A DNA stretch of 64,000 nucleotides from Harriotta raleighana (lineage: Eukaryota), in contig JBNZDD010013701.1 of the NCBI GenBank assembly GCA_050575255.1, forward strand, positions 6,426,084 to 6,490,083, read 5' to 3'. A program made the translations under genes and the position numbers. This document shows positions 29,843-64,000 of the stretch, piece after piece. How positions within the stretch are numbered: position 1 is the first letter of the stretch; the number at the start of each line of letters is the position of its first letter. The notes beneath the pieces were generated by a model. The model searched no databases, was not told where the DNA came from, and was given only the letters and a program-made list of their open reading frames with translations.

Positions 29843-29887
<45 letters not shown>

Positions 29888-37205: not shown

Positions 37206-37644
37206 ATTTCTGTGGAAATGTCTTGGAAGACCAGAGAAGAAACGCAATTTAAAACAGCTATTGGGCAAAGTCATGTTGTCAGGTGTATCAAGTCCCACAT
37301 TCAACCAAATAGAAAAAACAGCACTGTTCCATTCATCAGAACAAGCAAAAGTTTGGATACCATCTGGGAATCCAGGACTCAGCAAAGTGACTGCAGTGAT
37401 GAAAAGACTTACAACAAGGCAGAGCATATCTTCCCGTGGGCAAAAGCACCTTTTACGAAACAGGAGAGTTTTTATGATCAGCACAGAGAAGAAAGTCTTT
37501 TTCCATCTGACGAACAAGATTTACTCAGTGTAGAGAGTTGCCCGCCACTGTTATGTGACACGGATAGCTTTTCAGAATGTCTGGTGCTGGACAAGTACGA
37601 AACTCAACTCAGCACTGATTTCCCTGAGATGGAAGAGAGAGAAA
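37206..37644 (+). CDS. Uncharacterised coiled-coil protein, exon A (probable ATG at 37218)
   Basis: 439 nt open after acceptor ccacatatag: ISVEMSWKTREETQF...SCPPLLCDTDSF...PEMEERE. Donor A|gtaaga, phase 1, matches the next exon. Confidence 0.7.
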
Positions 37645-38248
37645 GTAAGAACCTCCCCACCCAGCACATACACACACAAAGTAATAACCTTACATTTGAT
37701 ATAACGCCTTTCACGTTAGGAAGATGCCTTACAGCACTTCATGGGATATACAGTATTCTATAAAATGTAATTACTGTATTTTTTAGGTGGATGCAGCAGA
37801 CAATTTGTGCACAGTGATGTCCCATAAATGGCCATGAAATTAATGACCAATATTTTAAACAAAATTTTGTTGTGTGAAATATGTTATATCTCTGGTAAAT
37901 AATGTGCTAAAGCAAACCTGAAGGATAGAATGTGTAGGACCACACTGGTTTTGCAGAGTTTGGTTATTAATATAGGAAGGGAGGGCAAGGGGAATCATTT
38001 CTCCAATAGGTGGATGAAGTCATTGGGAGAGGGAATGAAATATAAATTCTCAATTTGACTTTTTCATTTTCATAGCATGCCAGTTAATGTGGTTGATTGA
38101 CATTGTGTTCCTAGATAAACAGAAGCTTCAAGCAAGAGAAATTTCAGGAACTTTCAAGCAGCAGAAATTAGACTCTGTCAATCAGTGTTCTTGATGCCTT
38201 ATAGCCCATTAAAGCACATAACCTATTTATGTTACTTTGATCTTATTA

Positions 38249-38596
38249 CAGTAAAATCCCGTTTATCTGACATGCTAATTGACTGCGCCGGATAATCGGG
38301 CAGCAAGTTGCCGAAACCCCAACATAAAAAATTAACTTATTTTAAAACATACCATGTTAATAATAGACTAAATAGTAACAGAATATTGTATGGATACTTA
38401 CCAATAAAGCATTCCAGCACAGTTGGGAAAAAGATTGGTAAAAACCCAAGTTCGTAAGTTTAATAAGTGCACATGTGCACGCATTGTACTCATGCACAAA
38501 ATGAGCAAACTCACGATTGCTGGGATGGGGAATTGCCCCAGGAGGGGGGTCGAGCAATCCGATTGATCAGATCACGGATAAACAGGGTTTTTCTCT
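38249..38596. mobile_element. MITE family B
   Basis: TA|cagtaaaatcccgtttatc ... ggataaacagggttttt. Interior is the reverse complement of segments at 5890-5940 and 62530-62620. Confidence 0.8.
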
Positions 38597-38689
38597 ATTA
38601 GCAGGATGTCATTCTGTTATGATGTCTATAAGCGCTGTTAATACTGCTGTTAAGCGCTCCAAGACCTACTCAGTTGAAGGGCATTAGCA

Positions 38690-39021
38690 ACCTGCCCCCC
38701 CCCACTCCGCTCAGCAGGCCTGCTCCACATCCCCTGACCCATCCGCTCCACCCTCGGCGGACGGGCCTTCAACCACTCTGCCCCCAACTTGTGGAACTCC
38801 AGCCCGCAGTCCCTCCACCTCGCCCCCTCCTTGCCTCCTTCAAGTCCCGCCTCAAGACCCTACTCTTTGACATTCTCATTGATCACCCCAAATCCTTTCC
38901 CCCTTTCTCTCCACCCTCCCTGTCCCCTACTCCAGCTCAGGTCTGAAACAATGAGTGTCCAGTGCCTTGGGATGTTCTCCTGACGTGAAAGGCACTATGC
39001 AAGTATAATTTTGTTGTTGTT
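38690..39021 (+). mobile_element. L2 LINE 3' fragment
   Basis: ASFKSRLKTLLF-coding end and gtgaaaggcactat...ttgttgttg tail. Confidence 0.85.
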
Positions 39022-39112
39022 ATATAACTATGAGTTGTTGTTGTGTCATTTCATGACAATCCATCTTTGGTCTTCAACGCAGTGAGTTATCTCCACTAAG
39101 ATGTCTGTGTAC

Positions 39113-40400
39113 GTTTATGGGCGCCTTTCATGTTGGAAGTACGTCCCAAGGCACTGGACAGAAAGTATTCCTGACCTGAGCTGGGGGTAGGAATTGCTTG
39201 AGGGTGGAGGAAAGGAGTGAAAGGAAATTGATCGAAAGCACGGTCAAAGAGGAGGGTCTTGAGGTGAGTCTTGAAGAGGCGAGGGATGGGGTGAGGCCGA
39301 GGGATTGCAGGATGGAGTTCCAGAGGATGCGGGCAGAATGGCTGAAGGCTCACTCGCCAGTGGAGGGGAGGGCTTGGCAGCAAATGTGAAGCAGGCCGGA
39401 GCCTGATGAGTGGAGGGAGTTGGCAGGTTGGTAGGGGGTTAGAAGGTCGTAGAAATCGGGGAAGTAAGGGATTGCAGGAGAGGACATCGTGTGCAGAGTT
39501 CCAAATGATCTGCAGCCTGTGGAGGGAGAAATTGAGAAGGCTGACAAACAAGGAGTTTGCACAGTCAAGCCTGGATGTTATGAATGCATGTTTGAGAATT
39601 TGGGGGGCCTGTGGTGTGAGACAGGATAGAACCAGGCAATGTTGTGGAGGTGGGAAAGGCAGAGCAGGTCATTGCATAGATGTGGGGTAAAAAGGACAGT
39701 TGAGGGTCGAACAAGATGCAAAGGTTCTGCACTGGCTCAGTGAGATGAAGTGTGCACCCATGGATGGTGATGCTGTCAGCACCTGAGGTTTAGAGGTGCT
39801 GACATGAGCCAATCATGATATTATTGACATGCAACTGAAGAAGTTAGCTCTCATTCAGCACCATAGCTCAGTGGTGGATGAGAGCTAACAAGTAAGAGAC
39901 TTGGGTTCGATTCCAGGCAGGGGGAAACCTTGAGCAAATTTCCTTACTCCACATGCCTAATAGTAATCCCTCACAAAAAATAATAATAAATTAGTCAATT
40001 CAATCCATGACTGTTTGTGGGACACTGCTGTGAGCAATTGGCTCTCACATTTCGTCCACAAATATACAATCAATTCACTTTACAGTATATTCTGTGAAGC
40101 ACTTTGAGACATCTAGAAGATGTGAAAAGCACTATATGAAATGCAAGGATTACTATTATTGATGTCTGACAGATATTCTGTCAAGACAGTAGTGGTCCTG
40201 GAGTCAAAGGTGGAGCAGAGAGAAAGAGTTGGGTGTCATCCCATGAAATTGACCCCATTTCTGCGGATGATGTCACCAAGAGGGAGGTGTAGATGTTGAA
40301 GAGGAGGGGAGCAAGGACAGATTCCCGAGGGTGGTGCGGGAGCTAGAGGAGAAACATATGTGGAGATTAAGTGGAGGTGGTGTGAGAGGTACAAACTGAA
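39113..40400 (-). mobile_element. L2 LINE fragment with nested SINE
   Basis: LHRLQIIWNSA and FKTHLKTLLFDRAF peptides; L2 tail at the left end. Confidence 0.82.
39863..40160 (+). mobile_element. SINE family A nested in an L2 fragment
   Basis: tagctcagtgg and ggttcgattcc boxes; L2 sequence resumes on both sides. Confidence 0.88.
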
Positions 40401-40573
40401 CAATTCAAGAGCCACCTGAAGATGTGAAAAGACTTATGTGTCCATTTATCTCCAACTGTGCTTCAGTTTCCAAAATGCCCCTCGTGATTCAATATTACAC
40501 TGTTTAGATTCAACAATGCTGAAAATCTTCTGTGAATATTTTTTAAAATTCTGTCTCTTTCTCTTTTATACAG

Positions 40574-40631
40574 GAGGGAAGAAAAGTAGTGCTTCAAATG
40601 TAGACATGCTTTCTGCTGAAAATGTTAACAA
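40574..40631 (+). CDS. Coiled-coil protein, exon B (58 nt)
   Basis: Strong acceptor tctctttctcttttatacag; (R)GKKSSASNVDMLSAENVN; donor AA|gtgagt; phase 1 to 2. Confidence 0.75.
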
Positions 40632-41589
40632 GTGAGTAACAAAATGCCAGTGTGTCAAAACTATTCATTGTATTTTTTTGTCGTGTGGCTGTACCGTGAA
40701 TGACAATAAGTAGGGAAAGTGCAGAATATGAAGGTGAACATAAAGCCAGCTATAAGCTTTCAAAGGTATAAGCTTTTAAAGGGTTTTGAAGGTAAGGAGA
40801 AGAGATGCAAGGCAAATGGATTTGGGAGACAATTCCAGAGATTGAGAGCATAGGAATTGACTTCTGGGCAACTGATGGGGGCACAGAGGGACCAAGGAAT
40901 AACCAGAGTTTAGAAAAGTAATGGTCAGTAACACAAAGTGATGGTTTACATGTTTGATATTTCCTCCTATTCCTGGAATGAATTTTGTATCTCAAGCAAT
41001 CCCCAATGGAGTACATTGTGGGGGGTGGGGGGAAGGGGGTAGTGTGGGGGAGGGGTGAATGGGGAATGGATTGCTCACATTTGCCTGCTGGAGCTGAAAT
41101 GCCAGCATCTAATGAGATTGACCTAATATAACTAGACCTGCGGAAATGTGCATTGTCAAAAGTTGCTGCATGATAACACCTTATCACATCGTTGAGATAT
41201 CCCAAAGCACTTCACAGAAAATATATTGTAAAATGAATTGACTGTCTATTTTGTGGGCAAAACGCTCCCACAAAATGTCTTGGACCTGACCTGGGGGAGG
41301 GAACCAAGAGGGTGTATAGAGAAGTGAAAAATATGATTTTTGTGGTGGTGTTGTGCAAATCTATTTTCCTTCTTGACAAGTCTTCCCTCCACCTCCAAAT
41401 CGCTCAGCAGAATTTTATTGTGCTGAAATTTCTGTTTGTATCATCATAGGTAATATTTATTGGGCTGAATTGAATGAAGGAAATGTCAACTTAATTAATA
41501 TGTTATGAATGTCTATTTAATAAAAGTACCCAACATCAGTGAAGTGTATTATCCTGCCCACAAAGTCCAGTGTAGACAAAACATTCTTG

Positions 41590-42010
41590 TTTCCTGACTG
41601 GCTCATTCGGTAATTTTATTGCTCACTGTGGGACTGACCCATGTATACTGGGAAGATCCAAACTTGGGCTGAGTTATCTGATCTCTGCTGGGATAAAATT
41701 AGTGTTGCTATGATTGAACTTAGGGCCTTTGGGTTACAGAAGGTAAAAATGAACAGGATCACTATCCATTCATTCCCACCCCCACCCCTTCGCCCCAGCT
41801 GGAAAGTGAATGTGAGAACCCAGGTGAGGTCAGGATTGAGCTCAGCTATCATATCCCAATGGTCGACAACTACTGTCTGGACTTACGCATGGAACTCCAT
41901 TCCTATGTCTCTTGTGCAAAGGTGACATTTAGCTGGGGGTTGGTTGTGCCTGTGAAGATATGCCCCAGGGAAACTTCAGTGTTTCAGAAGCGGATGAGGG
42001 ACAAAAGGTC
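41590..42010 (+). mobile_element. AmnSINE2-like SINE, degenerate
   Basis: gctgagttatctgatctc and ggtgaggtcaggattgagctcagct match the reverse complement of 17395-17850. Confidence 0.6.
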
Positions 42011-43587
42011 ACAGGGCTGAAGAAAGTAATGGGATTTTAGGAAGCTGTCCACATATTGGCTAAGTAGAGGGAATGGACAAGTTGGCTTGGGTGATGGAGA
42101 TTGCAGAGTTAGAGTGCAGAAAAACTATTGAAATGCAGGAACAAATGTCTTGAACGTGATCTGCTAGGAAATGGGCAGACAGTGAAGCCAAGCAAGGATG
42201 CGGGTGATAGGCTTTAATGGAAGAAGACATGGGCTGCAGAGTTCTAGTTTTTTTTAAACAAAGTACAATACATATTTATTGGTAAATAGAATATGTATTT
42301 ACCCTTGTTTCGAAGAATTCCCATGACAGAAAAAACACACCTTAATATTTTGTTACAATACACAACAGACAGTAATGGAATATTAACATGTTACAGGGGC
42401 TGGCTCTGGCGCTCCATATACATGGAGGGTCTAAAGCATTTCCACCTCAGGGTTCTACTGCTCTTTGCAGGGAGCAGTTACCATGTGGATCTTGTCCCCA
42501 CTCTCTCCCTTTTTATGTGGGGCATGGCTAAGTTTGCAATATATCAATGTGCACATTTGCAAGACACTTTTTGGTTTCTGCATACCCTTTTATAATGTGA
42601 GATTGAGACAATGGATCCAGATAACTTATAAAGGGGTTGCCTTGTATTTGCATTTTATTAGGGGTAGTTGTTGGTAAGTGAGTGGGATGTTTATGCAGTT
42701 AGTATAAACCCAATTTAGAAACTTGAGCTTGTAATGTAGTCTGACACTCGAGTAGAGTTCTGAGATGCACTGGATTGTTGAAGGAGCTGTTCTAAATAAA
42801 TAAAACATTACCCTGAGGTTTTGTTTTTCTATCCTCCAGTGGGCATTAAAGATCCCATGACACCATCAAAGATTACAATATTTTTCTTAAAAAGAGCTGT
42901 GGAAAATTAACTTCCAAATTAAGACGGAATATTTCACATTTCTGAGCTACCTTGACTTTACATTTGAGACCCTGGGGATATGGGGCCTCTGAAGGGGAGG
43001 TTAGATCCTGTTTTGCTTAAGGGGAAAAAAGAGGGAAATTGTGGGAGTAGATTTACAGGGCCAGTTGCAGTATGTCACGAGGGATCAAGCACAATGGAAT
43101 TTCCTCATTTTGTTCATGTCATGTGAATGGGGGCTTAGTTAAACCAAAAATGATTCAGATCAAAAGCTGGCTGCTTATCCATGGGGAGGGAAATTTGGTT
43201 GGATTGTTGCCTGAGACTTATTTGTGTACACTTTGCAACTTGGTCACCAGTGGCATCTGGTAAAGAGCAGGTGTCTGTAGGCTGGGTTGAGTCATGTTAA
43301 ACAGTGTAAGCGGACTGTGTGGGTCAGAATAGCAATCAATGTTCAGAAGAAAACAATGCCTATTTATAAAAAATAAAAACAGGCAGGAAGTGAGCTCAGT
43401 AAGAGGAAGTTAATGTTAGAATCACGCTTTGTAAATCATGAGCATTCTTTGCACAGTACAATGCAGTCATGAGCTCAAACAATGGTTGATTGGAATGGGT
43501 CAAGGTTGGTAAACACAGTAATGTGGATCAGGAATGATTTCACATGGACCTTATTTTTTCTCTCTGGTATTTAAACAACAACTTGCA

Positions 43588-44382
43588 GAGTACTGCAGCT
43601 CAGTGGTTAGAGCACCCGCCTTGCAAGCAAGAGACCTGGGTTTGATTTCCGGCAGGGCAAATCCTTGGACATGTTTCCTTATTTCACAATCCTAATAATA
43701 ATCCCTCAAGAATAAAAACAATAGTACTGTAATTTGATTGCTTCACTCCACAACTGTTTGTGGGACACTGTTGTGCATTTTGCCCATGAAATACAGGCAG
43801 TCCTCAAGTTACGTCAGGGTTAGGTTCCTAAGATGTGGTGTAAGTCGAATTTGTATGTAAGTCGAGTCACCCCCTTATAATGCTTACAGTAACATACAGT
43901 GATTGGTTGTAGNAGGAGATCACATGTGACGTAGCGCAACGCAGATCACACGTGACGTAGCGCAACGCAGATCACGCGTGACGTAGCGCAGTCTAAAGGC
44001 GGGAGAGTACTGTCCCGCCGAGCTCACAGACTCACACAGTACCTGTACAGTACACACTCGCATCTCGCCTCCATCCTGTTCCTGTCCTGAACGCGTATCG
44101 TGGTCCCGTAAGTGTTGAGAGCGGCGACTCCAGTTTTCTATCGCGCGTGGGGCAACTAAAGTATTTACATAGCAGTGTCGTAACTTCGAGAACTTGGATG
44201 TAACTTGGACGTAATTTTACTGATTTGAAGTGTCGTAACTTCGAATTGTCGTACCTCGAAACGTCGTAACTAGAGGACTGCCTGTATATACAATCAATTC
44301 ACTTTACAGTACTGTATATTCTGAGAAATGATTTGTGACATCTAGAAGATGTGATAAGGTTAGGATTACAGTACTATTATAT
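43588..44382 (+). mobile_element. SINE family A interrupted by a DNA transposon
   Basis: Head and body at 43588-43793; tail resumes at 44287 (tacaatcaattcactttacag). Confidence 0.88.
43794..44284. mobile_element. Non-autonomous Tc1/mariner (Tigger/pogo-like) DNA transposon
   Basis: TIRs caggcagtcctc(a/t)agttacg at both ends, TA target duplication at 43792-3 and 44285-6, CpG-rich interior with a 26-bp tandem repeat. Confidence 0.88.
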
Positions 44383-45083
44383 TTTATTATTTGTAGAGCG
44401 CCCTTCACTTAGTCACTGATCCTTTAGGGGGAGGGGAGTTGGATGGATGCAAAGATGTTTGAAATGAAAAGAAGTTGTATCCAAAGTGTTAACCAGAGCC
44501 AGTTTCAGGATGCCTGGCTACTTTGCTGATTTGGGAGAGGTTCAGTTGGGTAAGCTGGCGTGTGCGGTATTTTAGAAGTATTTTTTTCCTGTACCATTTT
44601 TTGTCTTACAATATTTTGCCCTCTTATCCTTTTCTGCTCTACTAAAGCTGTTTGTGATTTTTTTCCTCTACTCTGGGTTGGGGGGTAAAGTTCCACAAGT
44701 GCCAGTCGCCCTTTAGCATTGCAGCTAGTGGATTCCACTCATGTGTGAACCTTGTTAATAGGTGAGAGCAAGAGTTTTGTGCATCCGGAACCATTACAGT
44801 CGAGGCTATTAGACACAACATTCGCATGGGCTTCAGTTAAGCAATCAAGAGCAGAGGGAACTCCAGTAGAAGGCTGCTTCAACTGCTGCTTTGGCCGGAA
44901 ATGAAAGGCACTATACAAATGTAATGTTGTTGTTGTTAGCTGAGATGAGGTTGAACCTGTGACCTAGTGGCTGCACTGGATGTTGTTTTTGGCCATGAAC
45001 CATCGGGGGGCCTATATTTTTAAATCATGTAAATTACTGTGTTGATTTTCATATTTTATCCTAATTATTGTTTCATTTAAAAG

Positions 45084-45198
45084 TCAGGAGGGTCAAGTTC
45101 AATGGCAAGCCCTGGGCAAAGGGTTTGAGGAGGAGAAGAAAGGGGCACAGAATATTGAAAGGCTTTGCTTGGACCTGCTGGTGCATAACCAGAAGCTG
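45084..45198 (+). CDS. Coiled-coil protein, exon C (115 nt)
   Basis: Acceptor tttcatttaaaag; (N)QEGQVQWQALGKGFEEEKKGAQNIERLCLDLLVHNQKL; donor CTG|gtgaga; phase 2 to 0, exactly bridging exons B and D. Confidence 0.72.
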
Positions 45199-45295
45199 GT
45201 GAGATGTTGCAGGTTGTTTTGTTGCTTGTATTCTCTTTTATTATACAGTTCTCGTGATCTATTCAGTGAATGGTTTGCAATTTGTTTTTCAACAG

Positions 45296-45346
45296 GAGGA
45301 TGAGAACAGAAAATTACTCTCTTACGATGCCAATCTGGAGAAACGG
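45296..45346 (+). CDS. Coiled-coil protein, exon D (51 nt)
   Basis: Acceptor tttgtttttcaacag; EDENRKLLSYDANLEKR; donor CGG|gtaggt; phase 0-0. Confidence 0.75.
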
Positions 45347-45914
45347 GTAGGTTGTTGTTTTGATCCAGGCAGTGAAGTAGATATCTGAAACCTGTTTTTA
45401 CATACACTGAGAGTACAATTTAACATTTAAATTAAGGTACAAACATATAATTTGAAAATGTAATTGGAAGTGTTTTGGGTTAATTTTTTTAAAAGTAAAT
45501 ACTGTACATTTTTTTCAAAAAATACTTTTTAGTGCGAGGGAATCTAGATCCAGCTATAAGATGATCTTATTTGGCCTGTTTTTGTATTTGTTAATATGAG
45601 GAATGACATTGCTGGGCACTGGAATGTGTCCTATTTTTGAGGCCATTCTTTGTATCAAGCATCCAGGTCAGATATAGCATATCCAGATGGAGAGTGTAGA
45701 TTCCTTCACTCTGCTCCAACCAATGAGATCCTACATTGAGTAATAAAGAGGCTTTGCATTTGATAATCATTGCATTTGGTAATCCTTGCAATTGATGTCC
45801 CTGCCTTATTATGTTGGATGAGTACAATTGCTTCACAGGATTTACTGTAAAGCCTGTTGTCTGTATTTTGTAGGTGAACATGGTAGCCAATTGGCAATTT
45901 TCCACAAACAGAAA

Positions 45915-46224
45915 TAATAATAATCCTTGCATTTGATATAGGGCTTTTCACATCTTATTGACGTCTCAAAGCGCTTCACAGAATATACTGTAAGTGAATT
46001 GACTGTATATTTGTGGACAAAATGCGGCAGCCAATTGCGCACAGAGGTGTCCCACAAACAGTCGTGGATTTAAATGACCAATTTTATTATTGTGGGTTTT
46101 TTAGAAGGATTATTATTAGGCATGTGGAGTAAGAAATTTGCCCAAGGTTTTGCCCTGACCTGCCTGGATTCGAACACAGGTCTCATGCTTGTAAGGAAAG
46201 TGCTTTAAGCACTGAGCTACAGGA
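45915..46224 (-). mobile_element. SINE family A, full length
   Basis: Reverse complement of the 34382 copy. Confidence 0.9.
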
Positions 46225-46553
46225 GGACATGAGGTGAATTTAATTACCTGTTTAGCTTGGAGATTTTTGGCCAGGATGTCAGGCAAAGCTCCCTCCTCTT
46301 TTCAAGTAGTAGAATCTATAACTTGCACCTGAACAGGAAGACAAGGATACCATCTCACCTGAAAGATTGCATCTCCAGCAAGGTAGCTTCTCCCCAGTAC
46401 TGCACAAGACTGTTTGACGATGTAAGTTCAAGTCCTGTTGCAGGGACTGTGGGACATTGTTGTGGCAGCTGTTGCATTTGTTACACTGGACAATACATCC
46501 TATTAAGTGCTTTGAGACATCTTTCTGACTTGAAAGCTGCTAAATATGATTTT

Positions 46554-46873
46554 AATAATAATAGTAATCTTTGCATTTGAGATAGTGCTTTTCACATCTT
46601 CTAGGCGTCTCAAAGCGCATCACAGAATATACTGTAAAGTGAATTGACTGTATACTTGTGGGTGAAATGCAGCAGCCAGTTGCGCACAGCAGTGTCCCAC
46701 AAACACATGAATTGAAATGCCCAATTTTTTTATTGTTTGTTTATTGTTTATTATTGTTTGGGATTATTATCAGGTGTGTGGAGGAAACTTGCCCAAGGTT
46801 CACCCTGCCTGTATTTGAACCAAGGTATCTCGCTTGCAAGGCGAGTGCTCTAACCACCGAGCAACAGGATTCC
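46554..46873 (-). mobile_element. SINE family A, full length
   Basis: Head retains a cttgcaa anticodon loop (tRNA-Ala TGC-like), plus body and tail. Confidence 0.9.
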
Positions 46874-47462
46874 ACAAGATTTTCTCCCTTCTGTTCCATT
46901 CTTTTTTTCCCTTTCTCTCCTGTTTTTCTGCCCCTCTCCTGTATCTCCCCCTCTGCTTCTTTCTATCTTTTTGCCTATCCCATGAGCTTTTTAATTCTCT
47001 ATAAATTTACATCTTATTTAATTCATTTCCACTTCTCCATTTCTGCCTCTTGATGACCCTGCGCTATGGATTGCAGCAATGTTTATACGTTGAGCCACAC
47101 TGGATAATTGGGACCAGTTCTGTGCTTTAATTCAGGTTTTAGATTAAAAATATATGTAGAGACTGTCCCTGGAAGGTAATAGTTTTCAGATTTAATTTTT
47201 TCTTTAAGATTTAGCAAGATATGAACCCGTGTGAGAACTTCTTTAGTAAGATTTGAATATGATTATAAATCAGAAAACCGTGTGGTAGCCATGGTTAAAA
47301 GCTGTAGTGAGTGGCTTAAAATGGTTATAATTCAGACTCTGAGTTCTTGTTATCTGAATTAATTGAAAGAATTATATATTTTTAACTCATTCCCAAGTAT
47401 CTGTTGTTCCTGGGTAACATTTGCATGGAAGGAAGAGAATAATTTTCTGTGTTCAATTCCAG

Positions 47463-47540
47463 GTGTCAGAAATCAGCAAAAAATTGTTCATATGGGAGCA
47501 TAATTATTGTACTCACCAGAAAGCTGTCGATAAGATGGAG
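47463..47540 (+). CDS. Coiled-coil protein, exon E (78 nt)
   Basis: Acceptor tgtgttcaattccag; VSEISKKLFIWEHNYCTHQKAVDKME; donor GAG|gtaaga; phase 0-0. Confidence 0.78.
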
Positions 47541-49075
47541 GTAAGAGCACTTAGGCTTCTGACTCTTGGAGCCTCCACAGTTTTGCAATTTGTTAAAGGT
47601 AAATTACAGAAAACTTCACAGACCTGCAAATTGGTGCTTTTAATTCGTAATATAAATTTTCTGTGGGCAAGTCACCTTCTAGCTTTGGCACTCTGAACAG
47701 AAAAGCTCCAATTACCAAGCAGTATTAGTGTTTGTAACAGTTTGTTCGTTAGTGGCAGTACAAAAGGGGATGGAGGTAGTTGCAAAAGGGAATTGGATAC
47801 ACTTTTGATAGCAAAGGTGATTGGGTATATGAAAGATGAGAAGTGATAGTATTTTAAAATGTGATCGTCCAGTCAGCTGATAATAGTATTCTTTTCACAT
47901 GCTGTGTATTTCTGAGTTCATATGTGCTCCATCTTTGCTCTATTACTGCTTCTTTTCCTGCTTTCCTCCAGTATTTTGTTGAATTACTTGCAAGGGTTAT
48001 GTATAGGATAATATGGTGCTGGATTAAGTTTATGTTGCAGAACTGTGGGTGGGGGATGGGGAGAGGAAGAATCACTGAAGAAAAATTGGGCAAGTACCAA
48101 TGTTAAATTAAGTTGTTGAATTTAAAAACTATATATTTTCTTTGCCTGTTCATTTGTAAAGAACATGACGTGGTGATAATTGTGCTGAAATGCATCATCA
48201 CATTATTTCCATTTGATAAGAAAAAAGAAAAATGTGCAACAAGATAAGACAGTTTGGTCTTCTCTTCCTACAGACCAAATACAATCTTAACGTGCGTAGA
48301 ACTCTACTTCACTTGTTTATATTATAATTAAACTTGTGCACAGCTTTCTGACTTTTCACCTATCCCCAAAGAAATCAAACAAATTTGCCAGATCCATTTT
48401 TAACGATGTCAGTGTCTCTTTAATGCAGTAGCCTCACATTGGGGTCTATTATTTGTCATGTGTAAACAGAGGTATATTCACTTTATTGAATATATGCATA
48501 TTCTGTGGAGTGCTTTAAAACATCTTGAAGACCTGATAAGGTACTATATCTAATGCAAGAATTATTATTATTGTAGAGGTGTGCCTCGTGCTATGTGTAA
48601 ATGCATGTTTTCAGAGGAAATCACTGCTACCCTTCATTATATAGTTAACAACCAATGAACAGGATTTATTAGTTATGCAGTCGCCCACCAAACCTTTCAC
48701 TGTTTGCTAATTACAATAATTAGAGCACCTGTAATTCTCTAATAATGCATCTCTTTAGACAAACCACATAATACAACTTGGTTTACACATAGCACAATAA
48801 TAGATGACATGTTCTAGCCCAGTAATTGCTCCCATCTGATCCTCACAATAGTACTGTTAATAATGAAACCAAATTATAAGGAAATGGATCGAAATGGATG
48901 TGAAGAGTGAAAAGGCAATTAATGAAAGTTTGATCATTTAAAGAAGAATCGAAAATAATGCATTCTCTCCTGCAAGCAATTGCAACCTGAGAGCGATTGA
49001 AAGCACAGATTTCACTCAACTGGATATTCGGCCTGGAGTAAAGGCCAACTTCTGTTTCTAGTGTTTCAGGATGGA

Positions 49076-51357: not shown

Positions 51358-51391
<34 letters not shown>

Positions 51392-52650: not shown

Positions 52651-52876
52651 AGCTACCCAAATATGTCTTGCTGCAGAATCCACCTGACTCAAGCATGGCT
52701 TCGAAGACTATTTCCAGACTTGGCTACACCACCCCAAAGCTCCCTCACCTTAGCATAACTGCACTTTCTTCCCCAGGATCATTCAAGAGATGAAAGACAA
52801 TCTCAGGCTCTTCTCCGCCACCAACCATTTCCTCTGCTCACCTTTCCATGCAAAAATTACTTGAATCCAAGATTTA

Positions 52877-53170: not shown

Positions 53171-53248
53171 TGTCTTACTCAGCTCCCTGCACCCTCTACC
53201 GCTGCCATCCTCTACCCACTCTCTTGTAGCTTCCTCACCTCTCATTCC

Positions 53249-53880
53249 AACAACAACAACAAAATTACATTTGTATAGCGCCTTTCACATCGGGAGGACG
53301 TCCCAAAGCGCTGAACAGCTCAGGTCGGGACCCGAGCAGGGCGGGGTGAGGGGGTGGGGGGAGTCAGGGGGAGGGGGAAAGAGAGTGGGAGAGAGGGAAG
53401 AGTTAGCGAGGAAGCCGAAGGCGCGGTCGAAGAGACCGGCCTTGAAGGAGGAAAGAGAGGAAGCAAGGTGGAGGGACTGTGGGATGGAGTTCCAGAGTGT
53501 GGGGGCAGAGAGGATGAAAGCCCGGCCACCGATGGTTGGGCGGTTAGGGCAGTGGACATGGAACAGGCCTGAGTCTGCTGGACTGAGGGTGCGGGTAGGC
53601 TGATAGGGAGACAGCAGATCAGAGAGATAGGCAGGGGCAAGGCTGTGAATGGCCTGAAGGTGAGGATGAGGATCTTGAAGTCGATCCTCTAGGGAATGGG
53701 GAGCTAGTGGAGACGGCAAGGGTGGGAGTGATGTGGTCACGAAGCCTGGTGCGGGAGAGTACACGGGCTGCAGAATTCTGAATGATCTGCAGCCTGTGAA
53801 GGGAGGAATTGGGAAGGCCGACAAGGAGAGAGTTCCCTTAGTCAAGCCTGGAAGTGATAAAGGCGTGATAAAGGTGTCCA
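53249..53880 (-). mobile_element. L2 LINE 3' fragment
   Basis: HSLAPAYLSDLLSPYQPTRTLS...GGRAFILSAPTLWNSIPQSL...SFKAGL; (caa)n tail on the + strand. Confidence 0.9.
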
Positions 53881-54015
53881 CTCCTTAGACCCCATCTCCC
53901 CCTTACTCCCTGGACTCCTGCCCCCTAGTTCTCCCTCTTCCTTACCAAACTCATCAATGTTATCAACCTACCCCTCTCCACTGGCAATGTAGCTCCTCTT
54001 TCAAAACTGCCATCA

Positions 54016-54303
54016 GGAATCCTGTAGCTCACTTAGAGCACTTGCCTCACAAACAAGTGCCCTGGTTTCGATTCCAGACAGGACAAAACCTCAGGCAAAT
54101 TTCCTTACTCCATATGTCTGATAATAATACCTAAAAAAAAAAGGTTGTTTCAATCCACGATTGTTTGTGGGACACTGCCCTGCGCAATTTTCTGCTGTTT
54201 TCACCCAAAAAATGTACAGTCAATTCACTTTACAGTATATTTTGCTTTGAGACGTCTAGAAGATGTAAAAAGTACTATATCAAATGCAAGGATTATTATT
54301 ATT
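54016..54303 (+). mobile_element. SINE family A, full length
   Basis: ggaatcctgtagctca head through gattattattatt tail. Confidence 0.88.
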
Positions 54304-54579
54304 ATCATCATTATCACAACCCTCCTCCTCAAGAAAACCCCAAGCAACACTTCCAGCTGTTATTCCATCCTCAAGTTAACCTTCCTCTCCAAAGTACCGG
54401 TACAAAGTATTGACTCCCAGCTTTGTTCATTTGTTTCCTACTACTCTCTCTTTGAGCTCCTCCAAGCTGATTTTTGTTGTGCCCACACCACTGATACTGT
54501 AGATTTTCTCCATCTACAGGCTTCCTTTACTTTCTTGTTCTCTTTGACCACTGACCACCCCATCTTTCTGCACCTGGTG

Positions 54580-54886
54580 AAATTATTTCCACTGATCGGT
54601 GAATCAGTAACTAAAAGATATCAATTTAAGATAGTAAACATGCGAATGGGGTAGTTTAGGGAAACCTTTCATGCACAGTATAGTTAGATTATGGAATGCC
54701 TTGCTGGTAACGGTAGATGAGCCAAGTTGCATATTGGCGTTTAAGAGCTAACCAGACAGTACCTTAAAAAAGATTCAACTCCAGGGAAATGAGGAAAGGG
54801 CAGGTAAGTAGGACTGAAATGATTGCTTTTGAAGGACACAGATATAATGGCCTGCTTCTGTGCCTTAAATTTCTATGATTCTATGA
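54580..54886 (+). mobile_element. CR1 3' fragment
   Basis: Degenerate RT C-terminus and ttctatgattctatga tail. Confidence 0.7.
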
Positions 54887-55452
54887 GGAGAGATAAGTGT
54901 GGGCTCCAAGATGATATTAAAATCAAGTTGATCTTTTGTGGCAGTCTGCCATTGTCCAGTGTCCGGGCCAGGCAGGTCTGCAGTATTCCAAGGCTCTGTT
55001 GATTACAGTTTCAGGCAGATCAATAGTACTTGGTAGGGCAATTGGTCACTGGGCGCAAGGATTCTTCCCACAAGAGTCCTGTTAATTCTGGAAGCCAAAA
55101 CCCGAATGTAGGATGGTTTTACCAGAGGAGGAGCTGGAAGGTTGCCAGATAATGCTTACAATAGCAAACTATGCAATTATAGTGAGTTAGCATGGTGCAT
55201 CTCTCCAGTGAGAGAATTAGTATTCCAGACACATGGGAAATTTTTATGTGTAGGTGGCAGGCATATGTGGAAAGCTTCCTAGTTTGGATACTCTTAAGCA
55301 TGGTATGTACTTGGTTTCCACATGTGTCAGATACACCACTATCCAAATGAAGTAGTGGGGACTGGGGGGAAATGGAAAAAGACGTTTTATTGGATGGGGA
55401 GGAGAAAAGGTATGGAATTCTGCAATCTGAAGAATTATTTACTCCTGCACAG

Positions 55453-55509
55453 ATTGAACTCCAAGATATAGAGCAAGACATTGAATTGAAGAATCAAAGG
55501 ATTGGAGAG
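55453..55509 (+). CDS. Coiled-coil protein, exon F (57 nt)
   Basis: Acceptor tttactcctgcacag; IELQDIEQDIELKNQRIGE with heptad periodicity; donor GAG|gtaatg; phase 0-0. Confidence 0.72.
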
Positions 55510-55930
55510 GTAATGGAGTCATTTTTTTCCAGTCGTTTTGATTGGTGGAGTTCCTGAGAATGTGAGCAGTGTGCGTGTTTATTTTACTTTAGGACTGGCC
55601 AAATAAACTGCAATGGTCATTTTGCAGCTCTACACATTCCTACTGTTGTTTACATTTTTATATTCCTAGGTAAGCTACGCTGCTAGGAAAGTAAAGACGC
55701 AAAGAAGGAAACCGTACAGAAAGCATTTGTGTTCGGCTATTACGGGTTGTGATGCAGTCAGAACCCACAATTATGACAGTTATCTTCCAATTCCATGAAG
55801 TGGATCAGTTTATCCTCTGAGAAAGTGCGCTGTAAGTGGCTGCAGCTTGCACCACTCATGCAAAGCAGCGTCTCAGAGCACGTGATACAGCTAATACCTG
55901 GCAATCTCATTCATTATGATAAAATAAAGT

Positions 55931-56327
55931 AATAATAATAATAATTCCATTTGATATAGCGCTTTTGATGTCTTCTAGACGTCTCAAAGCGCTTCACAGA
56001 ATATACTGTAAGATGAATTGTGGATGAAATGCGGCAGCCAATTGCGCACAGCAGTGACTCACAAACAGTCCAATTTATTATAGATTTGCTTTTTGACAGA
56101 TTATTATTAGGTGTGTGGAGTAAGGAAACTTGCCCAAGGTGTCACCCTGTCCGCCCACAAACATGCAGTCAATTCACTTTACAGTATATTCTGCGAAACC
56201 CTTTGAGATGTCTAGAAGACATGAAAAGCAATATATCAAATGCTACATCAAATGCAAGGATTATTATCATTCAAACACATCTCACACTTGTAAGGCGAGT
56301 GCTCTAACCACTGAGCTACAGGACTCT
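55931..56327 (-). mobile_element. SINE family A containing an inverted nested copy
   Basis: Minus-strand tail and body at 55931-56151, plus-strand 3' fragment at 56152-56268, minus-strand head at 56270-56327. Confidence 0.8.
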
Positions 56328-56346
56328 ACTGTACACCGAGTACACT

Positions 56347-56597
56347 AACAACAACAAATTGTATTTATATAGATACTTTCATGCTGGAGGATATCCCAAG
56401 ACCCTAGACAATCAAGGGTTTGTATCTGAACGGGGGAGTTGGAATCAAGAGGAGTGGTGGGGGTGGGAAAATGACTGAAGGCACAGTCAAAGAGGAAGAT
56501 GTTGAGATGGGCCTTGAAGGAGGCAAGGGCAAAGGGATTATGGGATGAAGTTCCAGAGGGTGGGGGCAGAACGGCTGAAGGCTCGACTCTCACTGGT
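56347..56597 (-). mobile_element. L2 3' fragment
   Basis: ASFKAHLNIFLFDCAF peptide and (aac)n tail. Confidence 0.8.
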
Positions 56598-58001
56598 GCC
56601 GATTAACAAAGAACTGATTCTAAAATCAGTCTGGTATATGCAAAACCAGACAGTTGGGTTCAAACCTGTTTAGATTTGTCTGTGGATTTAAACACAATTT
56701 AGGATTTCCGAAGTTGCCTGAAATCACTTTGTCCTATCAGTTATTTTCTTACAAAAATAATACAATATAATGGGGCAGTGTTTTATTTTTTTCTGTGGTT
56801 TTATTTAGTGTTTGGATTTGTTTAAGGCAAGCAATGGCAGACAAGCCAGATATAGAGTGCCACTGGGCCCCACAATGTCTGCACAGTGTGTTTAATTATT
56901 GTTCTGTCATTATTGCAAAAATAAGTTGGTTTCTGGTGAATGCAACAGCTAATAAGAATATACATAATAATTGATGACTGGGAGTAATTACAAGGTAGTA
57001 ATCTCACCCAGAATGTTCAGTGACCATATAAAAGACAGGATTAAACCGCTATGAGATGAAATGTGGCCTTGAAATTTTTTTGCGATCTATACTGTGTAAT
57101 TTTCTTTGGAGTGCAATTTATATTTTGCTGCCCTTTATGACGGCAGTAACCTGGTGGATAGTGACAGCTTGTACACATCCTGTTGTCTTTGTGATAATAC
57201 ATTCACTAAAAGGTTAACAGTATGGTGTAATCAATGTAAGATTGAGTTAAATACCAGTGATTGTTGGCAAAGAATATACACGATTATAATGTATATAAAA
57301 TATATCAACAATTACTAAAGCATATAATACCATAGCATGTACTACCATTTTATTTTGGCAAATACTGAGCTTTTTTGTGTGTGAAAATATCAACAACAAC
57401 AAGATTAGACTTGTATAGCACCTTTCATGTCAGGAGATGGATACATGTCAAGGAGATGGATATTCAATATCATAGTTATTTTTGTGTGAAAATATTATGG
57501 AGTATGAAATCCTGGACAAATAAAGCTTCCCACAGAGCAGTTCATCTGTACTGATCCACACGAGAATGCAAAACTGCTTGCACAGCACATGGTGTACTTC
57601 AGAGCACTAACATTTGCGCTTTGTGGTTTTTAGAATCTATTTTCCTGTTGTATGTTGACATAATATGCATGACTTAAACCTATCAGTATTTTTTAAGGTC
57701 TACAGATGCACAAGTGAGTACAACACACCATCATGTGAAATGAACACAATTTCAAGCCCAAACTATTTCCTTTCACTCAGATATCCACACCCCCCCCCCA
57801 TCCCTGCCCACCCACCCCCACATCCAACACACACAGAAATGACTTATGTAATTGAATTATCATAAAGGCTACAACCAGAAATAGAATATTATCAGACAAC
57901 TGATTAATCTCTGTTTCTCAGCTGCATAGGGAATGTCAGATCCCTTCATACTCCCCTTCAGTTCCATTCTGAGCAGTGGGTAGCTCTTTTCATTTCTGTC
58001 A

Positions 58002-58265
58002 CACAGGCTGAGTAAAATATTTAATAAATGCTCAGGGCTCACCCAAAACTGTGGCAAAAACCACAAATTGCGTTTCCACTGTCTAACATTCTTCTCATCC
58101 TCCCGGCCCTTATCCATATGTCTCAAGAGACATANCACAGGCTGAGTAAAATATTTAATAAATGCTCAGGGCTCACCCAAAACTGGCAAAAACCACAAAT
58201 TACGTTTCCACTGTCTAACATTCTTCTCATCCTCCCGGCCCTTATCCATATGTCTCAAGAGACAT
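58002..58265 (+). repeat. About 130-bp tandem duplication around a single N (probable assembly artefact)
   Basis: 58002-58134 versus 58136-58265, differing by a 2-nt indel and a G/A change; N at 58135. Confidence 0.9.
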
Positions 58266-59914
58266 GCAGCTTCCTTTCAGGAGTGAATTAAACCCAGATT
58301 TACCAAAGAGGTTGAATAAAATATTTGAAAAGGAAAACGGCAGTTTAAATAGCTCACGCACCAGAAAATTCACCTTGGGACGTGAAATATCTCACATACA
58401 AGAAATGGCATGTATGTCACGTGCATCTGAGGCCTCTGTCCTTAGACTATTTCAGTTCGGAGCAGAATGCCCATGGGTCAGCATGACATGTCGAGTACTC
58501 TTTTGGAGCACAGTATAACCCTAGGCATTTGGGGCCATTTTCGCTGCAGTTTCCGTTCAAGCACATTTTTAACCTCTTTGTCACAAGTGACTGGCTTGAC
58601 TTGTAAACCCTATTTCGCACAACAACATATTTCATACAATAACTTGCATTTATTTAGCGCGCCTCATGGAGGGGGGCATCCCAGAGCACTTCAATACATA
58701 CCACAATGTATGAGAGACAATCTAGTTATTCTGGACCACATTCAGCATGGCCAGAGAGCACATATTGAAATGTTGAAATGTTTGTTCCTGATGCTACACT
58801 TTTCGGGCAGAAATGGCTAATAGAAGGATGACTAATAGCTTTCAGGAAGATCTGGACAAATGAAACAGATGGGAGAAGAAGCAGCAGATGGATTTTAAAT
58901 CTAGATAAACGTAAGGTAATGTGCATTGGATCAAGCAAATGATGTGCACATAGTAAAGGGGTTTCCATTAGCAGAGATGCAGAAGGGTGTTTGAAGCTGC
59001 TGCCAACAAAATGAATCAAAAAGTAGGTGCAATCTTGAGAGCATGTGACTATTAGGTTAGAAGGTTATTAATCATACCATGAGCGGATACCACACATAGA
59101 ATATTGAGTGAAAAATGGCATTGTGCAACTTGTTAATTAACACCAATGGAATTAATCATTGAAATTTGAAACTGTGATAATTAACAAATTGACCAGTTTC
59201 TAGATGCACTAGAGATTAGAGATTAATCCTACCCTCTTGTAATCTATCATTACAATGTCAATTTAGTCTTTTTTCTAAAACAATGTTTGCGGTGGGACAC
59301 GTTTTCAAGAGGTGTCAAAATGCTTCACGGAATATACTGTAAACTGAATTGACTACATTTTTGTGGGCACAGTGTGGCAGTCAAGTGCACACGGTAGTTG
59401 TTCCACAAACAAAAGTGGATTAAAATGACTTTTTTCTTCTGTATTATTTTCTCTATGTATATTTTGTCTTTGTATTATTTTGAATAATCTCCTCAAACAA
59501 TTTTTTAAATCTAGCATCTTCCACATGAGAAAATTTACAAATCTATAAGACTTATATCAGAAACAAGAAATAGCAATAGACCCAGCAAGTTTGTTCCTGG
59601 TTCCCAATTACAAATACCTGCTTGATTTCTCATGGTAACCCTTTTTTTCTCCAATCATGAATGCAGTTTCCTCTCGAGCCTATTTACATTTAAATGGTCC
59701 TCTCTAGTAGTGTACCTTCTTATGTGCAATTGTATAGATGTAGGTAACCACTGTATTGTGCAATACCTTTCTGACCCTTGAGATTTTAATATGATTCCTC
59801 CATTCTTTGGTCCATTTCTATCATGAAGCACTACATTTGCCTTAATAAAATGAACATTTATTTTTCAGGGTTTATTTCACTTAAATCATGTTGTTTGGAG
59901 CAATGCCATCTTGG

Positions 59915-60292
59915 GTCAGCCTGGATCAGTAGTTAGCACTCTTACGCTCCCAAATTGGGACTTTGAACCTGTAGAGTCCAAGCTGACAGTCTAATACAGT
60001 GCTGGGGATGTGCTGAGTTGCCAGAGGTACAGTCCTATGGATGAAACATTAAACCAAGGTCCTGTCTGCCTGTCCAGCTGGATATTAAAGATCTGGTGTC
60101 ACTTTTTAAACGAGAAGACAGTTTCTCCCAGTGTCCCGGCCAACAATTCCACAGATAAAATTGTCACTCACCCCATAGCTGGTTGTAGGACATTGCTTTG
60201 TACAAATTGGTGGCCACACATGCCTACAAAATACACAGCCATTTTACCCTTTATAATATATAAAGCACTATATGAAATGCAAAGATTATTAT
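59915..60292 (+). mobile_element. Deu-domain SINE (DeuSINE)
   Basis: ggatgaaacattaaaccaaggtcctgtctgcc...ggatattaaagatc...tgtcccggccaac resembles the recalled Deu core; L2-type tail. Other Deu fragments near 46255-46415 (-) and 42770-42870 (+). Confidence 0.7.
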
Positions 60293-60984
60293 CTTCTAAA
60301 TTGTACAGATTTAGAGTGTGTTCTAAAGTTACTGTTTTGATATTTATTCTGTCAAACAAGTGTCCATTGGTAAGTCTATTTAAACACTTGTTTACTAAAC
60401 AGTAAACGTGACAATTATGTTTTCATTTTATTAGATAATAAAGTGCTTATTTAAGCCTTGCTCTCTGATTAGAAGAGGCAGTAGGTGTGTTTCAAAACTA
60501 ACATCTCAAGGATCAGATAATTTATCTGATGCAATCCATTGCCTCAGCCAAACCATTTGAATTACTCCCTGCAATCCACAAATAGTTAATTATCTATTTT
60601 AGCTCTCACTGAATACCTGGTGAGTAAGAGTTACAAGATGGGGAATGACGTATTTTCTGTATTGATTAGATATGTATAGTATTTTGAGAATGCTATTTTT
60701 AAACATGTCACCTAGCATGATGATTCACTGCATTTCATCTTAAAATCTGAGTTCAAGCAAACTGGCATGATCATGTAATGTGTTTGATCTCTACATCAAT
60801 TAATTTGAAGGTATGTACCTATGATCATCACATGATTCTCAGCCATGAGAATCTTAGAAGGCTCAAGGTACTTGCCTCCTAAAGGGAAAGAAAATCCCTT
60901 GGGTGCTCTTATGTAATTCCTCTGGTCAGAAATCAAATGAAAACCAATCCTGCCTCCTGAAAACCTGCACCAAGCTGCGTGACG

Positions 60985-61460
60985 CTATCAGTCTATCAGC
61001 CATACTCTCACCCAGCAATTCAGGCTTCTCATCCCCCAGAGGATAGAGTTCAAAATCTTCGTCCTTGCTTTCAAGGCCTTGCCTTGCTTCTCCCTACTTC
61101 TGTGACTTTCTAACTCCATATAGTTCTTTCTGCTCCCTCTGCTCAACGATCTCCAGCTTGCTCCATCATCCCCGCCTGACAATTGACTTTCGGGCCTTCA
61201 GAATTTCTGCCGAAACCCTTTGAAACTCCATCCCACAGTCCCTTCACCTCACCCCCCGCCTGGCTTCCTTCAATGTCCGTCTCAAGACTCACACGTTCAA
61301 TTGCACCTTCGGTCACCCTCCTACCCCTACCCTCCCTGTCCTCCGTCCTTAATTGATTGCAACTCCCAGTTCGGATCCAAATTCCTTGATTGTCCAGTGT
61401 CTTGGGATATCCTCCCAACGTGAAAGGAGCTATACAAATGTAATTTGTTGTTGTTGTTGA
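60985..61460 (+). mobile_element. L2 3' fragment
   Basis: atagagttcaaaatcttcgtcc (IEFKI) through gtgaaaggagctatacaaatg(ttg)n tail. Confidence 0.82.
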
Positions 61461-62326
61461 TGTTGGGTTTAGACTTGAGATCTACTGGATGCCAAAAGAT
61501 CATGATAACTACCTTATTATCTATAATCATTATTTCTTTACTACATGTTAAATATTGTAATAGTATCACAACTTTTGGTTGAAAATATTTGTTGAACAAT
61601 TAGTTTGTTGTCCTGAAATTGAGTTTCCCTGAAAAATATCGGTAGGATTTTGGAATCTTACTGTCTAATTTAGTGTAATTTGAGAAAATATCTGTGGCCT
61701 TTTAAAAGCGCTAGCACTTAAGATACTTAAACATCTGGATGAGGGGAGAAAATTGGTGATGGAAAAGCATGTAAGCAAAATAGCACTGCAGATATTTCTG
61801 CTTACAGGAGGGAGTACATTACTTTTTCCTTTATATAAGGGAATGTAAGGACACTGAATAGTGCAGGGTCGCTGAGTTCTGTAATTTAGCACACTGTTCT
61901 TTGACCTCAGGATTCTGGTTTTGAATGTAGTCAGACTAATGGAATGAAATACGTCTCTTCATGACAGCTGGAAGATTTCTGTGTGAAATGACCTTCAGTT
62001 ACAAGCAGCTACATGCCCTGGGCAGAAATCAGCCAGTCAAATGTTTAGTGAGGCAAAATATGCATTTAGATTTTATTCAAAATAATCACTTTGATTTTAG
62101 ATTTGTCCATTTTATGCAAAATCACACAAATTGTTGCTTCAACTATGGTGTGTGCCATTGGCTGCCTCATTTTGCCCACAACCTGTCTAGTCGATTCACT
62201 TTGCAGTATATTCTGTGAAGCACTTTGCGACTTCTCGAAGATGTGATAAGGCGCAATATTAAATTCAAGCATTATTATGTCAACAACAAGAACAATTTGT
62301 TTCGATAGCACTTGGAATTATAAATA

Positions 62327-62716
62327 CAGTAAAAGCTTGGTTATCCGGCACCCAACCAATCGGAACGATCAACCAACCAGTATCTCCCAATACAATTCAC
62401 CATTCCAGCAACCAGATCTCATACCGTAGCCATCTGGGACACTCGCGGTATGCTCTCTTTGCGCATGCGCACTTATTAAACTTACCGAACGCTGGAATGC
62501 TTTTTACAGATCATTTTACCAAGTGTGCTGGAATGCTTTATTGGTATTTTCCATGCAATATTCTGTTATTATTTACTCTATTATTAATATGGTATGTTTT
62601 AAAATAAGTTAATTTTTGTGTAAGATTTTGGACAACTTGCTGCTCCAATATCAGGCATATTTAATTAACCGGAAACTGTCAGGTACTGTGGGTGCTGGGT
62701 AACGAAGCTTTTACTG
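62327..62716. mobile_element. MITE family B
   Basis: TA|cagtaaaagcttggttatcc ... gggtaacgaagcttttactg|TA, with shared interior aatattctgttattattt. Confidence 0.85.
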
Positions 62717-63508
62717 TATCAATGTAATTTTGTTGTTGTTAGCATTTCATTTAAGATGAAAGCCTTGAAACATCAATCACTCAGTAGAACGGGAATTTAA
62801 GGGAATTCACCAATGCTTTGGCAAAAAAATAAGTCGGCTGTTGAAGAATGGGGAGGGAGGCACAAATGCGGGGAGTTTGAAAACAGTTCCAGAGTGAGAG
62901 TCTAGAGACTGAAATCTATACCACCTGTGGTGGGGTTGAGGAATTGGCAACAGACAGTTGACTGGAGTTTGAGAAGCAGAAGTACAGATAAGAAATTAGG
63001 GCTGGAGGAGATTATAAAGTGGAGCAAGACTATCAAGTGATTTGAAGGATAGGCCCAGGATCTTGGATAAAACAGTTTGGGAATAGATGGCTCTGGAGTA
63101 CACAGACTGAATTGGGAGTGGCCAGGCTGGATTTAGGGGTGGATAGATAACTCTTAAATTTAATTGTAAGATTATTGGAGTTATTGATGGGATGGGTGGT
63201 GGGGTCTTCTACCCAGCACCTTGGGACGTCCTCCTGATGTGAAAGGTGCTCTATAAATGTAATTTTATTGTTGTTGTTTCCTTCGAAACCTTCTTCAAAT
63301 CATTTGTTTGACTATCTGTTTGACCATGCCTTTGTTTAACACCCTTAACATGCTCTTTTCCTCAATGCTTGGATTTCACAAATCCTGAGTCTGACTGTGA
63401 ATTGTGAAACACAATTAAACATTCATCCCACAAAGTGACTGAATAAATGCAATTTGTTATGTATAAAGTTAGATACTTGTGATTTGTTTATGTATACCTC
63501 ACATAATG

Positions 63509-63810
63509 TGGAGTCCTGTATGTAGCTCAGTGGTTAAAGCACTCGCCTTGCAAACAATAGACTTGGATTCGATTTCAGGCAGGGCGAAACCTTGGGCAAG
63601 ATTCCTTATTCCACACTCCTGATAATAATCTCTCAAAATAAGCAATAATAAATTGGTCATTTCAATCTGTTTATGGGACTGCTGTACACAGTTGCTGTCG
63701 TGTTTCGCCCACAAGATATACAGTCAATCCACTTAACGGTATATTCTGTGAAGCACTTTGAGACGTCTAGAAGATGTAAAAATCGCTGAATCAAATGCAA
63801 GGATTATTAT
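63509..63810 (+). mobile_element. SINE family A, full length
   Basis: ggagtcctgtatgtagctcagtgg...gccttgcaa head through gattattat tail. Confidence 0.9.
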
Positions 63811-63947
63811 AATAGATTCATAGTTACTCACAGAGTTGTGACCAGTGGAAATGTTGATCCCTTCATATAAACTGCACATGGTTCATATCTGCATTGGGCA
63901 TCGATAATTTCATTAATTCATAACTTTTATGTGTGTTTTGCTTTCAG

Positions 63948-64000
63948 TTAAACAAAACTATAGAGGCACTGTGGATAACAGCAGATGAATTAGCAGATAG
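63948..64000 (+). CDS. Coiled-coil protein, exon G (truncated by the window end)
   Basis: Acceptor tgtgttttgctttcag; phase 0 reads LNKTIEALWITADELAD, continuing the heptad pattern of exon F. Confidence 0.6.

Follow-up and report, generated by a model that had tools for sequence, protein, structure and literature searches.

Which protein family does a conserved coiled-coil gene belong to when domain searches leave it unplaced? The question is raised by a 64,000-nucleotide (nt) stretch of the Harriotta raleighana genome (assembly GCA_050575255.1, contig JBNZDD010013701.1, here C13701, 6426084-6490083), hereafter the window, to which all positions given without a contig refer. A preliminary description, made from the letters alone, had noticed a hidden multi-exon gene in this chimaera sequence and proposed a divergent relative of KASH5 and IRAG2. 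The gene in the window is real. It has nine exons, seven inside the window and two beyond it (Table 1), joined across eight GT-AG introns into a product of 338 amino acids (aa) with no internal stop. Its coiled coil very probably shares its origin with that of KASH5, IRAG1, and IRAG2, adaptors of the nuclear envelope and endoplasmic reticulum, although its product does not function as a KASH or IRAG protein.

Probable homology to the KASH5/IRAG coiled coil

Given that Pfam, PDB, Foldseek, and ESM Atlas searches did not place the window gene, true members of the family were located in the same genome. Three of the 14 genome matches to Pfam KASH_CCD (PF14662) were above the cut-off, on contigs C13540, C13312, and C13623, each of which also has an EF-hand_9 match. 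We read C13540 as IRAG2 (MRVI1 match, transmembrane [TM]-KASH tail, KRAS neighbor), C13312 as KASH5 (no MRVI1, TM-KASH tail, upstream of a glycogen synthase neighbor), and C13623 as IRAG1 (MRVI1, KASH_CCD, and EF-hand matches). A TM segment plus a PPV or APV tail was found for all three. The names of paralogues and neighboring genes are those we presume from exon peptides and Pfam domains. At the IRAG1 locus (C13623:2570995-2647196), EF-hand and full KASH_CCD exons lie upstream on the same strand, like those of long IRAG2, and could possibly be spliced into IRAG1. At C13623:2579819-2582150, a 60-nt and a 56-nt exon occur twice with identical translations, 1501 bases apart, reflecting either a local tandem duplication or an assembly artifact.

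The coil exons of all three paralogues measure 159 (phase 2>2), 118 (2>0), 51, 78, 57, and 60 (each 0>0), and 56-65 nt (0>2). Against the 118/51/78/57/60/(56-65) nt found in 3/3 paralogues, the window gene sets a chain of 58 (1>2), 115, 51, 78, 57, 60, and 125 nt. Four exon lengths are exact, and the phases 2, 0, 0, 0, 0, 0, 2 are identical between the window gene and the three KASH_CCD genes. Vertebrate exon statistics give a rough estimate for the chance of such a match of ~1e-10 in a single comparison and <1e-4 genome-wide; the coiled-coil genes examined as controls have other exon lengths. When the exons are aligned to the paralogues without gaps, set at exon borders (138 columns), the four genes place their hydrophobic heptad positions in register and share 19 such columns; sliding the alignment to 137 other offsets gave 6.2 on average and never more than 17.

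Sequence similarity is suggestive only, and the conclusion of homology is therefore carried by the exon chain. The window gene is 18% identical to IRAG2, 17% to KASH5, and 12% to IRAG1, with z of 4.5, 3.6, and 2.5 versus cyclic shifts. For profile scores, 1645 coiled-coil windows from 11 frames served as decoys; these windows overlap and come from few genes. With a profile of the orthologue family, the cores of IRAG2 (53) and KASH5 (21) scored above all decoys (maximum 8.3). A family hidden Markov model (HMM) placed IRAG2 first of 85 at 17 bits, versus 5.2 for the best decoy, and IRAG1 eighth. With the profile of the paralogues, six family rows were matched or beaten by 1, 1, 19, 18, 0, and 26 windows. 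KASH_CCD itself matches catshark model P0005 (E=0.037; residues 152-276 to profile positions 64-189) and keeps the register of the exon alignment, the 118-nt exon ending at profile position 93.

Several of these results weigh against homology. The identity to the paralogues is weak and uneven, set against 29-32% among the paralogues themselves. In the family profile, the IRAG1 core was matched or beaten by 51/1645 decoy windows, and in the paralogue profile 3/6 family rows were matched or beaten by 18-26, among decoys that are overlapping and drawn from few genes. The family HMM ranked KASH5 just 16th of 85, with an hhalign probability of 13% (E=0.002). Recognition of KASH_CCD was confined to 1/10 full-length orthologues (14.4 bits against a cut-off of 43.3), the search of the genome with this family gave no match at the window-gene locus, and two ESM Atlas searches returned generic coiled coils, never naming KASH_CCD. 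Other searches told little either way: Foldseek found no match in the PDB, and a PDB sequence search with the coil profile reached at best an unrelated protein (E 0.017). Exons 1 and 2 showed no similarity to the EF or linker exons of the paralogues, exon 2 sharing only its 1>2 phase with the 79-nt IRAG2 linker exon. Taking exon structure and register together, we nevertheless consider homology of the window-gene coil to the KASH5/IRAG coiled coil very probable. The kinship proposed in the preliminary description thus stands for the coiled coil, by way of exon chain and heptad register, and falls for the rest of the protein.

Gene model and conservation in cartilaginous fish

The seven GT-AG exons first chained by eye, with phases 1, 2, 0, 0, 0, 0, are all present with AG/GT ends and in those phases, and the coil peptides quoted for them sit at 45175-45198, 45296-45346, 47463-47540, 55453-55509, and from 63948 onward. 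Because exon 1 opens at a splice acceptor, an upstream 5' exon is implied, which was not located. Exon 1 encodes a predicted disordered N terminus with no homologue detected outside the orthologue family. This N terminus had been described as low-complexity and acidic; the acidic stretch is there, but a basic part comes first, and the region is predicted to be disordered. At 67593-67790, the alternative tail of Callorhinchus model P0002 matches at 39%; the frame stops early, and the segment may be a weak alternative last exon.

Orthologous models number 16, from five species. Queried with exon 1, a Callorhinchus RefSeq protein was retrieved (76% identity, E 1e-61), and queries with the coil retrieved skate and catshark proteins. 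By tblastn, the models align exon by exon with the predicted coordinates (11/16 mapped). The window gene product is 82% identical over 328 columns to Callorhinchus P0001/P0002, and 41-45% identical (tblastn) to the main skate and catshark models. The RefSeq orthologues (XP_007899890/XP_042202448, Callorhinchus; XP_032904533, Amblyraja; XP_055514650, Leucoraja; XP_038652309 and XP_072366325, Scyliorhinus) are named "girdin-like," "putative leucine-rich repeat-containing protein," or "uncharacterized," and none names KASH5 or IRAG. Identity to elasmobranchs is ~35% in exon 1, 47-76% in exons 4-6, and 95% in exon 7, the last being 95-100% identical across chimaera, skate, and catshark (four orthologues compared). 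Slow divergence of exons 4-7 versus fast divergence of exon 1 points to selection on the coil. The 312-aa orthologue P0013 is encoded by a Logan contig of 1277 bases, suggesting a spliced skate transcript. When the Harriotta genome was searched with P0015, matches with E<1 fell at the window-gene locus only (3/5 rows). The reading frame of the predicted gene is thus kept in other chondrichthyans, in chimaera, skate, and catshark models.

The family was found in chimaeras, skates, and catsharks only. No bony-vertebrate orthologue appeared among 34, 556, and 7989 candidates, in searches that required shared 5-residue words and could miss diverged ones. A representative library, queried with fast-evolving exon 1 only, gave two matches and no bony-vertebrate orthologue, which does not demonstrate true absence outside cartilaginous fish. 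Literature searches, whose coverage left out subscription papers, returned no paper on the window gene and none linking it to KASH5 or IRAG. Known before were RefSeq gene models, whose names tell little; tying them to the KASH5/IRAG coiled coil appears to be new.

Table 1. Exons of the window gene and a related locus elsewhere in the genome
Feature	Position	Strand	Length (nt)	Phase	Remarks
Exon 1	37206..37644	+		donor phase 1	acceptor AG before 37206; start codon ATG at 37218
Exon 2	40574..40631	+	58	1>2	linker; 83% to Callorhinchus
Exon 3	45084..45198	+	115	2>0	coiled coil begins; counterpart of the 118-nt KASH_CCD exon
Exon 4	45296..45346	+	51	0>0	length as in IRAG1, IRAG2, KASH5
Exon 5	47463..47540	+	78	0>0	length as in the three paralogues
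Exon 6	55453..55509	+	57	0>0	length as in the three paralogues
Exon 7	63948..64007	+	60	0>0	crosses the window edge (64000) by 7 nt; length as in the three paralogues
Exon 8	66972-67096	+	125	0>2	outside the window; paralogue counterparts 56-65 nt, 0>2
Exon 9 (terminal)	70479-70524	+			outside the window; TAA after 15 codons; corresponds to the tail of Callorhinchus P0001; neither TM nor KASH
Third MRVI1-domain locus (fourth family copy)	C13693:2852900-2867000				flanked by RPL10A and by a RAS gene that has a KRAS-like exon

Predicted shape and missing domains

AlphaFold2 (query P0002, 5-row alignment; predicted template modeling score 0.30) assigned a predicted local distance difference test score (pLDDT) <50 to residues 1-164 and one helix from residue 166, with pLDDT 95-98 over about 181-300. 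The predicted shape is a disordered head of ~165 residues followed by a single helix of about 150. The maximal 19-residue hydropathy is <=0.97 in 17/17 sequences, and a TM helix or PPPX end occurs in 0/16 orthologous models. EF-hand_9 has no match on C13701, though the three paralogue contigs match, and Pfam scans of 10 orthologues gave no EF-hand family. Given also the predicted disorder of the N terminus, the EF-hand is absent, as had been supposed when no such N-terminal exon was seen. MRVI1 (PF05781), the domain that binds IP3R, gave 11 matches on C13623, C13540, and C13693, with none on C13701 and in 0/10 orthologues. In the orthologous models inspected, neither the 159-nt coil exon nor a TM/KASH tail could be accommodated. 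Between 67 and 165 kb, a stretch with five assembly gaps, 0/17 of the PP-ending frames listed resemble the TM-KASH exons of the paralogues. Per-exon HMMs from the three paralogues were not accepted as showing absence, since they failed to detect even the homologous exons of the window gene and had only self-hits as controls. Membership in the KASH5/IRAG2 family had been made to hinge on a KASH or MRVI1 end, and the frame ends in neither, stopping 15 codons into exon 9 (70524).

Compared one by one, the paralogues share the coil and differ around it. The long form of IRAG2/LRMP (zebrafish Futile cycle type), the best-scoring paralogue, shares the second part of its KASH_CCD coil; unlike IRAG2, the window gene has no EF-hand, 159-nt first coil exon, MRVI1, TM segment, or KASH tail, encodes 338 aa, and occupies another locus. 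KASH5/CCDC155 shares exon chain and register at 17% identity. Unlike KASH5, the window gene lacks the EF-hand head that binds the dynein light intermediate chain, the post-coil exon, which in KASH5 would hold a Spindly-like motif, the TM segment, and the KASH tail. Missing these, it cannot be a dynein adaptor of the KASH5 kind in the nucleoskeleton-cytoskeleton linker (LINC) complex. The exon chain is also shared with IRAG1/MRVI1, with its upstream same-strand EF-hand and KASH_CCD exons, at 12% identity and not above decoys; the MRVI1 domain and TM segment of IRAG1 are absent from the window gene.

Proposed function and alternatives

The N-terminal domain of KASH5 binds dynein and the coiled coil mediates self-association (PMC3787381). 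The EF-hands plus coil form a homodimer (bioRxiv 10.1101/2022.03.11.483947), and neither the coil alone nor residues 1-349 activated dynein (PMC10071310). We consider it likely that this conserved cartilaginous-fish gene with KASH5/IRAG-like coil exons encodes a soluble protein that dimerizes by its coiled coil and uses the exon-7 patch to bind its own partner, acting as an independent soluble adaptor. With only the distal two-thirds of the coil kept, the protein would dimerize, by analogy with the self-association of the KASH5 coiled coil. It would not activate dynein in the manner of KASH5, as it has neither the EF-hand head that binds dynein nor the post-coil segment, and with no TM segment or KASH tail it would not be anchored to a membrane. 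The near-invariant, tryptophan-containing exon-7 patch, unlike that of the paralogues, would most simply be a new binding surface.

The same origin could also have yielded a soluble decoy: at the nuclear envelope, its coil would pair with that of KASH5 or long IRAG2, so that less dynein is recruited during meiosis or in the zygote. On its own, the KASH5 coiled coil is brought to the envelope by the full-length protein (PMC3787381); the window gene has kept the heptad register, and its best score is to IRAG2. However, identity to the would-be partners is only 17-18%, the orthologous models lack the first 52 coil residues (the 159-nt exon), and exon 7, the most conserved patch, is unlike the corresponding exon of the paralogues. 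A decoy is therefore unlikely, and we prefer the independent soluble adaptor, all functional steps of which we infer. It is quite improbable that the models are incomplete, and that a longer isoform with an upstream EF-hand or a downstream TM/KASH tail makes this a true divergent KASH adaptor. The splice acceptor at the start of exon 1 and the assembly gaps after the last exon (the first at 70840-72119) leave space for such an isoform, and the per-exon paralogue HMMs missed even known exons, so that their blank for EF and TM/KASH proves little. Yet 16/16 models from the five species end within ~45 residues of the coil, none with a TM segment, the Pfam scans of 10 models found no EF-hand family, and the 312 aa of P0013 are encoded on a 1277-base contig that appears to be a spliced transcript.

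That the gene is an unrelated coiled-coil gene, CAGE1 or another, resembling the family by chance, is very improbable. The best Pfam matches are generic coiled coils, CAGE1 comes sixth (0.92, 142 features) in an Atlas list that has many unrelated coils, and an SSR1 family match lies on the same contig, 1.86 Mb away; we take SSR1 to be the human neighbor of CAGE1, which presumably sits between SSR1 and RIOK1. Chance would nevertheless have to account for four exact exon lengths and seven matching phases, at the rough ~1e-10 expected from exon statistics and with other exon lengths in the control genes. The CAGE1 family (PF15066) matches contig C6060 only, in a 347-aa single open frame followed by a further coil exon, and 0/10 orthologues. 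None of 12 RIO1 matches lies on C13701. The CAGE1 identity offered as an alternative in the preliminary description was accordingly rejected, with PF15066 confined to C6060, no RIO1 on C13701, and SSR1 1.86 Mb off.

To the small family behind the movement of meiotic chromosomes and the migration of pronuclei, the window gene adds an unrecognized, anchor-less member. It also illustrates that exon sizes can place a coiled-coil orphan missed by Pfam, PDB, and language-model searches. The reach of this addition is bounded by its occurrence, found in cartilaginous fish only, and by a function that we infer.

Origin of the gene

The gene order at the locus, SACM1L(+), SLC6A20(-), window gene(+), CPNE4(+), is unlike that of any paralogue locus; on contigs other than C13701, IRAG2 has KRAS as its neighbor and KASH5 has glycogen synthase, and neither neighborhood is shared. 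The window gene would thus have been relocated, and it presumably goes back to a gene of the KASH5/IRAG type that was partly copied or split before that move. As the parent, a tree prefers IRAG2, with approximately unbiased test p of 0.89, 0.11, and 0.11 and the other two not rejected (138 columns, 9 rows, unrooted). The third MRVI1 locus, on C13693, has no 51/78/57/60 coil chain and no KASH_CCD or EF-hand_9 match, and no TM tail was identified there. KRASBL is a KRAS duplicate from the second round of duplication, reported to be missing among jawed vertebrates from mammals and birds only (PMC9882654); such an origin would make the C13693 gene the sister of IRAG2. The best score of the window gene, to IRAG2, fits either a partial IRAG2 copy or a front half that the C13693 gene has lost, and a fission of the C13693 gene, which appears without coil exons, is possible.

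A more specific scenario is offered tentatively, as rather doubtful. The window gene would be the front half of a fourth whole-genome-duplication copy of an ancestral EF-hand/coil/MRVI1/KASH gene: the MRVI1 half stayed at C13693 (RPL10A/KRAS-like), and the coil exons moved beside SLC6A20, gained a new disordered head, and persisted for >400 million years in cartilaginous fish as a soluble LINC/dynein-adaptor regulator. For the wider family, KASH5 and LRMP have been proposed to arise by splitting of one fish fue/lrmp duplicate (PMC3787381). Separate IRAG1, IRAG2, and KASH5 loci, each with EF-hand and coil exons, plus an MRVI1-only fourth copy, favor ohnologues with differential domain loss over that proposal.

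Neighboring features

Other features of the window and its surroundings were recorded. The first coding exons of SLC6A20 occupy 1-7104 on the minus strand, with an ATG near 7104 and a further exon at 520-611. Antisense to SLC6A20, near its 3' part, is an intronless 357-codon glycogenin-like frame (L041:1777-2847, plus strand, window-relative -28223 to -27153; Glyco_transf_8, E 2e-14) that looks like an intact retrocopy. LZTFL1, which we take to follow SLC6A20 in human, lies here on another contig (C13578:166753-187040), and the 200 kb that follow the window showed no exons resembling CCR9 or FYCO1. A strong CpG island at 29000-30700 contains CCAAT and GC boxes and several TGACGTCA sites, with no coding gene assignable; near 30232-30262, the minus strand holds a Kozak ATG, a short exon, and a donor. 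The island could serve as promoter for the window gene, for CPNE4, whose first coding exon is ~135 kb downstream, or for a minus-strand gene that escaped detection. Three tRNA-like Rfam matches, at 6304-6360, 43589-43660, and 46800-46871, are probably heads of tRNA-derived short interspersed elements.

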